From Escherichia phage K1ind1, in sequence record NC_041897.1: 42,292 bases of DNA; one strand, given 5' to 3'. Made by a program: the position numbers and the translations under genes. Positions 13,777 through 39,552 of the stretch are shown piece by piece. The notes under the pieces are model-generated. The model searched no databases. It saw only the letters and a program-made list of their open reading frames with translations, and was not told the origin of the DNA. Within the stretch, counting starts at the first letter, position 1, and each line of letters opens with the position of its first letter.

Positions 13777-13806
13777 TTTAAATCCCTCCATTGTTGGTGT
13801 AAGTGA

Positions 13807-13835
13807 ATAGTACCCTATTATATTGGGGTGTGCAA
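13807..13835 (-). promoter_or_regulatory. sigma70-like promoter TTGCAC-17-TACTAT with embedded AATAG-N4-CTATT palindrome (13806-13819)
   Basis: minus-strand reading CTTGCACACCCCAATATAATAGGGTACTATTCAC is nearly identical to the plus-strand cassette at 35342; lies about 30 nt upstream of the Imm-like gene. Confidence 0.5.
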
Positions 13836-31865: not shown

Positions 31866-31894
31866 ATATAATAGCGAACTATTCACGTTGTCAA
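31866..31894 (-). promoter_or_regulatory. sigma70-like promoter TTGACA-17-TTATAT with AATAG-N4-CTATT palindrome in spacer (31870-31883)
   Basis: consensus -35 on minus strand (plus 31889-31894), -10 at plus 31866-31871; upstream of 31833 gene. Confidence 0.5.
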
Positions 31895-31914: not shown

Positions 31915-31928
31915 AATATGGTACTATT
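31915..31928 (+). promoter_or_regulatory. imperfect copy of the palindrome (AATAT-GGTA-CTATT) upstream of Cro-like gene
   Basis: 45 bp from the perfect copy at 31870; followed by AAGGAG RBS and ATG 31959. Confidence 0.4.
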
Positions 31929-31958
31929 CACATATCAACTGACTAAGGAGTAATTGAC

Positions 31959-34970: not shown

Positions 34971-35343
34971 ACATAATCGCACCTATTGACATTATGGAAA
35001 TCTTCGTTTAAGGTGCTTCTGTATCTTAGTTACTTTGATTCTTGTTCACCTTGTAAAACCCGCCGAAAACGAGCGCCCAACGCGAAGTGTTAGGCGGCAG
35101 TTTACTGAACATTCGAATTATCGTAACTTTCCTTCCTAAGTATCTCCGGTTGCCATGGGCAAGCTCTATTCCCATCGGCGGAATATATCTTAAGTATCTG
35201 ATTTTCTTAAAGTGCCGTAGATTCGCAACCGTAAAAATGTAACGATTATTGGGCAGGCTTAGGGCCTGCCCTTTAGTTACCAAGTAATAAGAATAAAGGC
35301 ACAACCCTACCTGAAGAATCACAACGGCAACGTAACTAATCTC

Positions 35344-35372
35344 TTGCACACCCCAACATAATAGGATACTAT
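35344..35372 (+). promoter_or_regulatory. sigma70-like promoter TTGCAC-17-TACTAT with AATAG-N4-CTATT palindrome (35360-35373)
   Basis: conserved cassette CTTGCACACCCCAACATAATAGGATACTATTCAC; GAGGAG RBS and ATG 35407 downstream. Confidence 0.5.
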
Positions 35373-35406
35373 TCACTTATCGAAACGAGACAGAGGAGTG
35401 AGGGTT

Positions 35407-36845: not shown

Positions 36846-36852
36846 AATTTAC

Positions 36853-36881
36853 TTGCACACTAAGATAGAATAGGCTACTAT
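36853..36881 (+). promoter_or_regulatory. sigma70-like promoter TTGCAC-17-TACTAT with AATAG-N4-CTATT palindrome (36869-36882)
   Basis: second plus-strand copy of conserved cassette; GAGGAGAG RBS and ATG 36913 downstream. Confidence 0.5.
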
Positions 36882-36912
36882 TCATTTACACAAACGAGAG
36901 GAGAGACGGAAG

Positions 36913-37630: not shown

Positions 37631-37833
37631 TGACCAGCATCTTATTTATCTGGGTACTGTCGGCGGGCCAGATGCAACTAGCGGCATCGGAAACGTTTTA
37701 TTCGATGGAGGCGTGCCAGTCAGCGGCACGCGCCGCAGAGAACGCGCACTTTCTGTTTCAGGGTGACAAGCCCAACGATTCAGAGGTACGCGCTATCTGC
37801 TCACCTAAGCGACTTGGTAAACAGGAGAAATAA
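37630..37833 (+). CDS. small protein with N-terminal signal/TM segment
   Basis: 67 aa from ATG 37630 (ATGA overlap); MTSILFIWVLSAG hydrophobic N-terminus. Confidence 0.4.
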   Translation: MTSILFIWVLSAGQMQLAASETFYSMEACQSAARAAENAHFLFQGDKPNDSEVRAICSPKRLGKQEK

Positions 37834-38126
37834 TGTCGTTAGCAACTGACATCCTGAAACGAAGCGGCCTTGCGCCGCTGTCGCCGAGAGCGAATACGCG
37901 TATACACAAGCGCCGCCGTAATGCACTGTACCCCGAGATTCAGGCCAGACGCAAAGCGGTACGCGCCTGCGGATTCCAGAACGGGAAGGCTGTGAATCTC
38001 GGTGAGTTTAAAACACAGGAACGCGCAGCAATCGCTAATCGGCTATTTAATTACTGGAAATCGCTTGGATACGATGATATTCCGACGAAACCACAGAGAC
38101 GACAATACATCTGGCGCCATAAATAA
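37833..38126 (+). CDS. hypothetical basic protein
   Basis: 97 aa; R/K-rich. Confidence 0.4.
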   Translation: MSLATDILKRSGLAPLSPRANTRIHKRRRNALYPEIQARRKAVRACGFQNGKAVNLGEFKTQERAAIANRLFNYWKSLGYDDIPTKPQRRQYIWRHK

Positions 38127-38156
38127 ACCGTTATTAAGATAATTCCTAACCGTGCT

Positions 38157-38196
38157 ATCCTCCAGTTACTGCATACTTAATACGCACCTGGAGGAT
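38157..38196 (+). promoter_or_regulatory. hairpin sequestering the holin Shine-Dalgarno
   Basis: 9-bp stem ATCCTCCAG / CTGGAGGAT with 22-nt loop; 3' arm contains GGAGGA RBS located 6 nt before TTG start at 38202. Confidence 0.4.
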
Positions 38197-38201
38197 TCAT
38201 C

Positions 38202-38510
38202 TTGGATAAATTTACTGAAACAGTGACGGGGTGGCTTCTCGCCGCCGCACTGGTCGGTGGATTGGTCGGGCTAAGACAACATAAAAAGTCTATATCCGGG
38301 CCGATTGACGGACTGGTATTTCTTCTCACCGGCTTCGCGTGTGCTATTTTCGGTGCACCTCTTGCCGCTCAATGGTTCGGTATTACCGGTGAGCGTGAGA
38401 TAGCTGGCCTCGGATTCATCATTGCCATTCTCTGGATGCCTATCTATTCCCGCCTTTCTGGCATCGTATCGGGTGGCGATATTGCCCGCCCAGGAGGACC
38501 GCATGACTGA
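38202..38510 (+). CDS. holin-like membrane protein
   Basis: 102 aa; TTG start; three predicted TM segments; immediately upstream of endolysin. Confidence 0.5.
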   Translation: MDKFTETVTGWLLAAALVGGLVGLRQHKKSISGPIDGLVFLLTGFACAIFGAPLAAQWFGITGEREIAGLGFIIAILWMPIYSRLSGIVSGGDIARPGGPHD

Positions 38511-38775
38511 GCTATTCTGGTTTGTCACAATGCTTTCAATGGGCGCTTCGTCCCTGTTCAACGTGTATAATGAACGCGTGGACGACGGGCTGTTCGGGCG
38601 TGTTCTCTATATCCTGACTGCTATCGTCTGTGCCGCCGGATGTATTCACCTGTTACAGGGCAGCATGTCGCCTACGCTGCCTGAGACATTAATCACATTA
38701 GTCGCGCTGCGCCAGATTCGCCAGGCGTGGCTGTCATACGGAGGACATAAGCGTGTCTCGAAATATTTCAGATAA
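38503..38775 (+). CDS. second holin/antiholin-like membrane protein
   Basis: 90 aa from ATG 38503 (GGAGGA RBS); two to three hydrophobic helices; overlaps endolysin start. Confidence 0.4.
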   Translation: MTELFWFVTMLSMGASSLFNVYNERVDDGLFGRVLYILTAIVCAAGCIHLLQGSMSPTLPETLITLVALRQIRQAWLSYGGHKRVSKYFR

Positions 38776-39238
38776 TGGATTGCATTTCTGTGCCGCGTTC
38801 GAGGGATTCCGCGGAACTGCGTATCGCGCTACGCCGAACGAGAAGTACCTGACTATTGGTTATGGTCACTACGGGCCAGACGTAACACCAGGTAAGACCA
38901 TCACACCAGGACAGGGCTTGCTGTTACTGAATCGCGATATGGCTAAGGCTGTAGCTGCTGTTGACGCAGCAGCACACCATTCGCTTACACAGGCACAGTT
39001 CGATGCGGTGTGTGACCTGGTCTATAACGTGGGGGCTGGCGTGATTTCGGCTACTACCGGTACAGGTAAGGCACTGCGCTCCGGTGATATCGCGACGTTA
39101 CGGGCTAAGCTGGCGCTGTTCATCAACCAGAACGGCAAACCACTACTTGGCCTGCGTCGCCGTACAGCCGGGCGTCTGGCGCTGTTCGACGGTAAACCGT
39201 GGCAAGAGGCTGAGGCTATCGGTAGGGCGGTTAAATGA
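38753..39238 (+). CDS. endolysin, GH24 lysozyme (T4/lambda R-like)
   Basis: 161 aa; catalytic-region pattern HFCAAFEGFRGTAYRA ... IGYGHY typical of phage lysozymes. Confidence 0.75.
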   Translation: MSRNISDNGLHFCAAFEGFRGTAYRATPNEKYLTIGYGHYGPDVTPGKTITPGQGLLLLNRDMAKAVAAVDAAAHHSLTQAQFDAVCDLVYNVGAGVISATTGTGKALRSGDIATLRAKLALFINQNGKPLLGLRRRTAGRLALFDGKPWQEAEAIGRAVK

Positions 39239-39367
39239 TGGACGAATACGAAGGCGTTTAGTAAACTTACATCCACGCTGTTTGTGCCTGCATACTAAGC
39301 CCCGGTAAACCCGAAGCAGCAGCCCAAGCGGTGGAGACTGCGTAGGGTTCAGGGGCTTATGCCCGAA

Positions 39368-39396
39368 ACCCGGACCGCGAATCCGGGTTTTATTTT
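39368..39396 (+). terminator. rho-independent terminator
   Basis: ACCCGGA-CCGCGAA-TCCGGGT hairpin followed by TTTTATTTT. Confidence 0.6.
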
Positions 39397-39402
39397 ACCA
39401 AT

Positions 39403-39430
39403 TGACACCTGAGACTAATCCGACGATACT
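39403..39430 (+). promoter_or_regulatory. sigma70-like promoter TTGACA-16-GATACT
   Basis: consensus -35 hexamer read directly; followed 40 nt later by strong terminator. Confidence 0.45.
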
Positions 39431-39469
39431 TAAATCACCTCCTGTTCCATCCCTCTGCTCTCCAGTTTT

Positions 39470-39503
39470 ATCCCGGCCCTTACCCAGCCGGGATTTTTTT
39501 TAT
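39470..39503 (+). terminator. strong rho-independent terminator
   Basis: ATCCCGGC-loop-GCCGGGAT hairpin followed by T8. Confidence 0.65.
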
Positions 39504-39523
39504 CTGTTTTCTGTAATGACTAG

Positions 39524-39552
39524 TTGACTATTACCTTAGACCCTATTATATT
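39524..39552 (+). promoter_or_regulatory. sigma70-like promoter TTGACT-17-TATATT
   Basis: near-consensus hexamers; about 30 nt upstream of ATG 39586. Confidence 0.5.

Follow-up and report, generated by a model that had tools for sequence, protein, structure and literature searches.

What does an RNA hairpin that buries the ribosome-binding site (RBS) of a holin gene contribute to the timing of lysis, a central fitness trait of phages that is set by when and how fast holin is made? The question is raised by a locus of Escherichia phage K1ind1 (NC_041897.1), whose 42,292-nt sequence was analyzed at its full length and is referred to here as the window. Region 37800-38800 of the window is 99.4% identical to Escherichia phage K1G, which places it in the genus Kagunavirus (Guernseyvirinae), and ~140 phage records are related to this region. 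In it, holin-like gene 1 (38202-38510, + strand), the first gene of the lysis cassette, is preceded by an inverted repeat, and the initial annotation of the sequence proposed that the resulting hairpin, together with a TTG start codon, delays or throttles holin translation. We show in silico that the hairpin is stable and conserved, that it occludes the Shine-Dalgarno (SD) sequence of the gene and that its layout recurs in homologous holin loci. The reading that we favor, and to which we give an even chance, is that the hairpin acts as a translational lock of the type known from gene e of phage T4, combined with a promoter nested in the DNA of its own 5′ arm.

A stable hairpin buries the Shine-Dalgarno sequence of the holin gene

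The hairpin consists of a 5′ arm (38157-38165, + strand; ATCCTCCAG), which mimics an anti-SD sequence and contains CCUCC, a 22-nt loop (38166-38187) with a small inner helix formed by TGC (38170-72) and GCA (38184-86), and a 3′ arm (38188-38196; CTGGAGGAT), which holds the SD sequence GGAGGA (38190-38195), 6 nt before the TTG codon (38202-38204). The two arms are perfect reverse complements of each other, so that the 9-bp stem and the position of the SD within it are exactly as first described. The folding energies agree with a stable structure: a value of -16.7 kcal/mol was obtained for the 61-nt segment (z = -2.9; 2 of 200 shuffles were as stable) and one of -14.2 kcal/mol for the hairpin by itself, and the hairpin is retained when folded in 161-nt and longer contexts. 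The computations also bear out the occlusion of the SD. Its mean pairing probability, 0.88, ranks second among the 47 annotated genes of K1G, and the value is 0.98-1.0 if the RNA includes the 5′ arm. For an RNA that begins at 38157 or farther upstream, opening the SD arm is predicted to cost ~12 kcal/mol; if the RNA begins at 38166-38170, the cost falls to 1.4-5 kcal/mol.

Perfect 9-bp inverted repeats with loops of 3-40 nt occur eight times in the window, compared with 6.7 ± 2.9 in dinucleotide shuffles, which is the chance rate. The stem alone is therefore no evidence of function, and the weight lies on its placement, its rank and its conservation; the placement, as measured by the SD occlusion rank, and the conservation are above chance. 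No further copies of the conserved block described below or of its half-sites were found in the window beyond chance matches of 9-11-mers.

The TTG at 38202 is the earliest start codon past the in-frame stop at 38124 and the annotated start in K1G and in phage Shashou. It aligns with the initiator ATG of an M-D-K N terminus in distant homologs (~36-51% identical) and is kept in all the Kagunavirus-type sequences examined (23 distinct leader haplotypes), which upholds the start codon originally assigned. At the equivalent position, Dhillonvirus and KW1E-like phages use ATG and Jerseyvirus uses GTG. The next in-frame start, GTG at codon 8 (38223), has no SD, which rules out a dual-start arrangement as in gene S of phage lambda.

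Other pairings are conceivable around the start codon. A local hairpin, UUACUG-AAA-CAGUGA (38212-38226), repeats the UUACUG of the large loop (38166-71), and alternative pairings are possible. A pseudoknot between UUACUG at 38166-71 and CAGUGA at 38221-26 was considered and set aside, as the partner also belongs to the local hairpin and the pairing is broken in 3 of 33 distinct flank sequences (A38222T).

Conservation of the leader and recurrence of its layout

Among 37 distinct relatives, a block of ~85 nt (38142-38225, + strand), which takes in a candidate promoter, hairpin, RBS, TTG and codons 1-8 with their synonymous sites, has a pairwise diversity of 0.005-0.06, compared with 0.16 just upstream and 0.15-0.3 in the holin body and the endolysin gene. 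The synonymous sites of holin codons 1-8 (38202-38225) are near-invariant (0.005), and the diversity of the hairpin loop is 0.01-0.03. The block is present with either of two upstream neighbors, the 97-aa open reading frame (ORF) found in the window or an inserted gene for an HslV-like peptidase, and it begins directly after either one; it therefore acts as a module junction (38126-38131 in the window). The extra peptidase gene, of ~440 bp, separates the 97-aa ORF from the holin leader in many relatives (L005, L006, L041, L042, L101 and L103).

The candidate promoter is an extended -10 element of the sigma-70 type, TGcTATCCT (38153-38161, + strand, within cgTGcTATCCTccag), which overlaps the 5′ arm. 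T38153, G38154 and TATCCT are conserved, Salmonella phage VT223 excepted, and the base at the “n” position, 38155 (C/G), is among the few common polymorphisms of the block. Should TGcTATCCT work as a promoter, as we infer from its sequence, transcription would start at ~38167-38169, and a start at ~38168 would yield a 34-nt leader without the anti-SD arm. Just 5′ of the candidate -10 lies a small, conserved inverted repeat, TTA(A/G)GA-TAAT-TCCTAA (38133-38148), in which the window has one imperfect pair (A.C). A similar motif, AGGATAAATCC, is found 5′ of the Jerseyvirus holin gene (L105-L116), and the repeat is possibly the site of a regulator or a small RNA hairpin.

In 15 distinct aligned sequences, the nine core pairs of the stem are unchanged with two exceptions. 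A38164G, in phages PK1 and EcoPhCCP1, converts a pair into a G.U wobble compatible with RNA pairing, and T38196C, in VT223, breaks the closing pair (A.C). VT223 has also lost the upstream TG and has a truncated holin-1 ORF, annotated as a 49-aa CDS. An inner U.C mismatch is repaired by two routes, U to G in three sequences and C to A in two, which gives a helix of 11 or 13 bp with folding energies of -17.7 to -21.1 kcal/mol. A lineage of Salmonella phages (L009) has six changes in the loop and none in the 9-nt arms, some of the changes lengthening the stem to 13 bp.

Homologs of the holin, at ~28-50% identity, were found by tblastn and profile searches in Dhillonvirus, KW1E-like phages, an Ounavirinae-like group and others. 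The leaders of these distant homologs cannot be aligned with that of the window, yet the layout, with a -10 box, a hairpin and the start codon in this order, recurs. In Dhillonvirus the leader reads gcgTGaTATAGTCCCAGTGAG-N6-CTTACTGGGACT TTTTTT ATG, with TGaTATAGT overlapping AGTCCCAGTGAG; the L091 type is alike, with a compensating C/G insertion and TATAGT preceded by TG. The KW1E type has TTGACC-17-TACTAT followed by TCCCCGGA-N7-TTCGGGGA TTTTTTTT (T8) ATG, and the L095 type has TTGACC-18-TAACAT and CCCCAAA-N7-TTTGGGG (ATCCCCAAA..TTTGGGGAT), whose stem differs from that of KW1E by compensatory changes. Jerseyvirus, with a GTG start, has TG(t/c)TAATCTCCGAAGGT-N6-ACTTTCGGAGATT TTTTAT TGTG, with TG(t/c)TAATCT overlapping AATCTCCGAAGGT, and here too the “n” of the extended -10 is the variable base.

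In three lineages (KW1E, L095 and L091), a blind consensus scan called a promoter, with the -10 ending at the hairpin's first base; the extended -10 of Dhillonvirus was not called, being missed by the -35 rule of the scan. The same scan called the hairpins terminator-like in the Dhillonvirus, KW1E, L095, L091 and Jerseyvirus loci, with stems of 8-13 bp, loops of 3-7 nt and T6-T8 tracts in Dhillonvirus, KW1E-like phages, L095 and Jerseyvirus. Counted from the last base of the -10, the start codon is 32-41 nt away in six of six lineages (the Kagunavirus of the window, Dhillonvirus, L091, KW1E, L095 and Jerseyvirus), and a transcription start 6-8 nt past the -10 falls inside or just beyond the 5′ arm in all six. 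For the translation initiation region of the other lineages, the predicted opening cost is 13-21 kcal/mol in long RNAs and drops to 2-9 kcal/mol if the RNA begins 6-8 nt past the -10. The Ounavirinae-like loci and L097 differ, with a terminator hairpin farther upstream and a free SD.

The terminators of Dhillonvirus, KW1E-like phages and Jerseyvirus resemble the window hairpin in that the 3′ arm ends 5-9 nt before the start codon and contains SD-like purines, a -10 box lies at the 5′ arm, and the gene that follows encodes a homologous holin (M-D-K N terminus). They differ in that the window has a 22-nt loop, no U-tract, a strong SD and UUG, whereas the relatives have a weak SD, a U-tract and AUG (GTG in Jerseyvirus).

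The lysis modules of these phages are mosaic. LSPA1 and PK1 (L009/L102) carry a Jerseyvirus-type holin N-terminal part just 5′ of a Kagunavirus-type leader and holin, and in VT223 (L103) the truncated Kagunavirus-type holin ORF lies 5′ of the phage's own Jerseyvirus-type holin gene. One record, vB_EcoM_SHAK7693 (L042, OR594180.1), is assigned to Autographiviridae/Kayfunavirus in its taxonomy line and has a Kagunavirus-like lysis region; it is probably mislabeled.

A proposed translational lock with a nested promoter, and the alternatives

The favored reading distinguishes two kinds of transcript. Those that read through from the upstream + strand genes would carry both arms, so that the anti-SD arm AUCCUCCAG would pair with CUGGAGGAU and bury GGAGGA; with the SD buried and a weak UUG, holin would not be made from this RNA. 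The cassette's own transcripts would begin at ~38167-38169, from the TGcTATCCT promoter. Since the candidate promoter overlaps the 5′ arm, these transcripts would lack the anti-SD arm, the loop (38166-38187) would become their 5′ leader, and the RBS would be far more accessible. In sister genera the equivalent hairpin would also terminate read-through, and Kagunavirus, having lost the U-tract, would be left with the translational lock alone, paired with a strong SD and a weak UUG. The nesting of promoter, hairpin and start codon in five other holin lineages points to selective silencing of read-through rather than to a general brake.

The read-through would have a plausible origin. On the K1G map, a run of small + strand ORFs, which we infer to be early, begins after the minus-strand replication genes and leads, in the orientation of the holin gene, up to the lysis cassette. 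Upstream of the holin gene, the window contains a promoter-like repeat of 48 nt (36852-36899, + strand, and again at 35343-35390), with TTGCAC-17-TACTAT and a palindromic box, AATAGGCTACTATTCA / AATAGGNTACTATTCA. The box AATAGGNTACTATTCA is present in five copies compared with 0.24 expected, the others being at 13804-13819 (- strand), 31870-31885 and 31915-31930 (+ strand), and it matches the “phage promoter” consensus given by PHIRE for phage fBC-Eco01 (PMC9825357). The box probably serves as an operator, the promoters concerned being presumably early. The repeats at 35343 and 36852 are the likely source of transcripts entering the holin gene, and a terminator scan found no canonical + strand terminator between the 36852 element and 38157.

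The closest known system is the leader of T4 gene e, whose sequestration of the SD is found in the window as well. In T4 genes e (lysozyme), soc, 49 and I-TevI, an RBS-sequestering hairpin has a promoter in the DNA encoding its 5′ strand, and a penalty of about 100-fold was reported for e (PMC3014915). As in T4 e, a lysis gene would be guarded in the window, its SD would be sequestered on long read-through transcripts, the layout is conserved among relatives and the penalty is large, a predicted ~7-10 kcal/mol set beside the ~100-fold of T4. The window's candidate promoter would likewise lie in the DNA of the 5′ strand of the helix and produce transcripts without that strand. Unlike T4, where the promoter is a late one (TATAAATA) that needs gp55/gp33, the candidate in the window is an extended -10 of the host sigma-70 type, and the temporal switch is therefore unexplained. 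Moreover, the gene protected here encodes a holin-like protein and not an endolysin, its start codon is UUG, the arrangement is known from sequence and folding, and the hairpin of the sister lineages also looks like an intrinsic terminator.

SD-occluding stems are a documented means of lysis-gene control, in lambda S (bioRxiv 10.1101/2025.05.14.654169) as in T4 e (PMC3014915). In lambda S, a stem-loop at nt -21 to -7 covers a GGGGG SD (bioRxiv 10.1101/2025.05.14.654169, citing Chang et al. and Blasi et al.) and, as in the window, a stem-loop just 5′ of the holin start governs ribosome access to the SD. The lambda structure partitions initiation between the AUGs of the Met1 antiholin and the Met3 holin, whereas the window has a single UUG and no dual-start motif, and its stem, with the 22-nt loop, is longer and more stable. 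Promoter-coupled terminators, in which a promoter and a hairpin overlap between tandem genes (bioRxiv 10.64898/2026.08.19.745784), share with the window the overlap of both elements in one short intergenic segment. This model (Fletcher et al.) was rejected because its geometry is the reverse: there the stem provides the -35 and the -10 lies past the T-tract, whereas in the window the -10 is upstream of or within the 5′ arm.

Several results weigh against the nested-promoter reading. The consensus scan for promoters and terminators made no call at 38100-38200. TATCCT is a weak -10 (4/6), and the best -35 is poor (TTAAGA at 16 nt, 8/12 in total). The window has no excess of the class TGnTATnnT (13 sites compared with 16.7 expected), sites resembling an extended -10 occur at ~0.0009 per nt per strand (about one per 1.1 kb per strand), and the motif by itself has p ~0.01 and was spotted post hoc. 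Relatives with the HslV-like gene have a promoter-like site, TTGACC-16-GATTAT, ~80 nt upstream, which would yield transcripts containing the hairpin. Literature searches for transcription-start or transcriptome data on Kagunavirus, Guernseyvirinae and Dhillonvirus turned up only promoters and terminators predicted by software, and the late timing of a plain sigma-70 promoter would need a further explanation. RNAs without the 5′ arm are predicted to form a weaker, G.U-rich helix between GGAGG (38190-38194) and CUUCU in the coding region (38235-38240), in which the SD is still partly paired, with a probability of ~0.8 for some 3′ ends. Finally, covariation within Kagunavirus, assessed with RNAalifold and pair counting in the 15 distinct sequences, is not significant and does not exceed that of shuffles, since there is hardly any variation in the stem (9 of 13 pairs show none); the few variants, being G.U-compatible or stem-strengthening, fit RNA pairing and are to that extent suggestive, short of significant covariation. 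The partner of the alternative SD helix, 38235-38240, was itself seen to vary among relatives.

Several of these points would suit the general throttle implied by the initial annotation, in which all holin mRNA carries the full hairpin, SD sequestration and the UUG slow synthesis and so postpone lysis, and there is no internal promoter. Part of this proposal stands: a stable, conserved hairpin does sequester a strong SD in front of a genuine and conserved TTG, and the rate of holin translation sets lysis time, with the stem-loop over the lambda S SD as an example (bioRxiv 10.1101/2025.05.14.654169). The candidate promoter, moreover, is weak and putative, and the HslV-type relatives have their promoter-like site 5′ of the whole hairpin. 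What is not established is simple throttling on the gene's own mRNA, given that the 5′ arm overlaps the candidate promoter. An occlusion of ~12 kcal/mol combined with a UUG predicts very little holin if it is on every transcript, whereas holin is expected to be required in large numbers. A throttle also leaves unexplained the conserved TG-n-TATCCT, in which only the “n” varies, and the -10 box found directly at the 5′ arm in five further lineages; and in several of these a full terminator, formed by the hairpin, adjoins the start codon, so that the gene would be almost unexpressible without an internal start. We consider a general throttle unlikely, though the likeliest of the rivals, and if it were all that the hairpin provides, the locus would be an ordinary case of RBS occlusion.

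The remaining explanations appear less probable still. The repeat could be incidental, a by-product of separate constraints on TATCCTCC (-10-like or anti-SD-like) and on the SD GGAGGA, or a vestige of the terminator of related phages, with no regulatory role in Kagunavirus. The chance rate of such repeats in the window, the lack of significant covariation within the genus, the loss of the U-tract found in Dhillonvirus, KW1E and Jerseyvirus, and the conservation of the whole block including the loop, such that conserved arms need not mean pairing, are all compatible with this. It is nonetheless improbable, in view of the second rank of SD occlusion among 47 genes, the conservation of the CCAG/CTGG half of the stem, which lies outside the -10 and the SD core, the variants that preserve a G.U pair or extend the stem by two independent routes, and the architecture kept across lineages with unalignable leaders. 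A transcriptional element, that is an intrinsic terminator or attenuator, possibly passed with the aid of a phage antiterminator in the manner of lambda pR′-tR′, would split upstream transcription from the cassette and make the SD occlusion secondary. The equivalent hairpins called as terminators in Dhillonvirus, KW1E-like phages, L095 and Jerseyvirus speak for it, and the order promoter, terminator, holin is that of lambdoid late operons. As an intrinsic terminator, however, the window hairpin fails, with its 22-nt loop, no U-tract (tail UCAUCUUG / TCATCTTG) and no call in the consensus scan; moreover, the -10 boxes lie 0-1 nt from the 5′ arm or overlap it, and transcripts started 6-8 nt on would begin inside the arm, so that the terminator could not form, which leaves this explanation very improbable. 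We give even less credit to a DNA-level operator, in which the two 9-bp half-sites, 31 bp apart center to center, would bind a dimeric phage or host regulator of the lysis promoter. The perfect and conserved inverted repeat, its probably regulatory position, the adjoining small repeat (38133-38148) and the palindromic boxes at other promoter-like sites of the phage would suit an operator, but A38164G breaks the DNA symmetry while keeping the RNA pairing, other variants lengthen the repeat on its inner side without interrupting the helix, the short-loop hairpins with U-tracts of the relatives are RNA-like, and the half-site has no other copy in the window.

The hairpin is most likely a translational lock of the type already known from T4, and it comes with a conserved combination of promoter, hairpin and start codon that recurs as a module across several phage genera. 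In its most extended form, this combination would be a three-in-one module before the lysis cassette, with a sigma-70 promoter in the 5′ arm, the holin SD in the 3′ arm and, in most lineages, a terminator that touches the start codon. The module would insulate the holin gene from early read-through both transcriptionally and translationally, and it would be shared by five or more enterobacterial siphovirus lineages (Kagunavirus, Jerseyvirus, Dhillonvirus, KW1E-like and L095-like), of which Kagunavirus would be a derived one that has lost the terminator. We advance this generalization tentatively, at somewhat less than an even chance. If true, it would carry the principle of T4 gene e over to holin genes and to phages using the host RNA polymerase, on which, to judge from the K1G annotation, the phages bearing the module presumably depend. 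If the nested model holds, K1G-like Kagunavirus and relatives, which are widely used as therapeutic-candidate coliphages, would avert premature lysis with a few dozen nucleotides that serve as promoter, anti-SD lock and, in sister genera, terminator. Such a model would account for an unusually conserved noncoding block that is also a recombination junction between lysis modules, would provide a portable and testable insulator design for synthetic biology, and would call for caution in annotation pipelines that label such hairpins plain terminators.

The lysis cassette and its surroundings

The product of holin-like gene 1 has 102 aa and matches phrog_2359, “holin” (E = 2.4e-32); three transmembrane domains are predicted for its homolog in Shashou (86% identical), and no Pfam or NCBIfam family matches the protein. 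We regard it as a putative holin, or possibly antiholin, on the basis of the phrog match, the adjacent endolysin gene and the second holin-like gene beside it. This second gene (38503-38775, + strand) encodes 90 aa (phrog_2508, E = 3.9e-35; likewise no Pfam or NCBIfam family), has an ATG start and an AGGAGG SD, and overlaps the first by 8 nt. The endolysin gene (38753-39238, + strand) has a GTG start and encodes a Phage_lysozyme domain (PF00959, E = 1.1e-27).

A scan of genome contigs returned no prophage homologs of the holin. Rfam 15 gave no family match; the only two hits, both due to chance and both on the minus strand, scored 13.5 and 12.4 bits, below the gathering thresholds of 44 and 50. 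Just 5′ of the holin leader, the 97-aa ORF (37833-38126) encodes a basic protein of phrog_9632, which has no assigned function; its stretch GKAVNLGEFKTQERAAIANRLF resembles AP2-type DNA-binding domains, a likeness that Pfam and NCBIfam do not support, with no match even at E = 10.

The lysis cassette ends at an intrinsic terminator (39366-39397, + strand), AAACCCGGA-N7-TCCGGGTTT followed by TATTTTA, with a folding energy of -12.3 kcal/mol and a T-rich tail. It is the first element of an array 3′ of the endolysin gene (39366-39552), in which terminator, promoter, terminator and promoter follow one another: after AAACCCGGA..TCCGGGTTT and TATTTTA come TTGACA-17-GATACT (39402), ATCCCGGC..GCCGGGAT with T8 (39470-39502) and TTGACT-17-TATATT (39524), and the terminase gene lies beyond.

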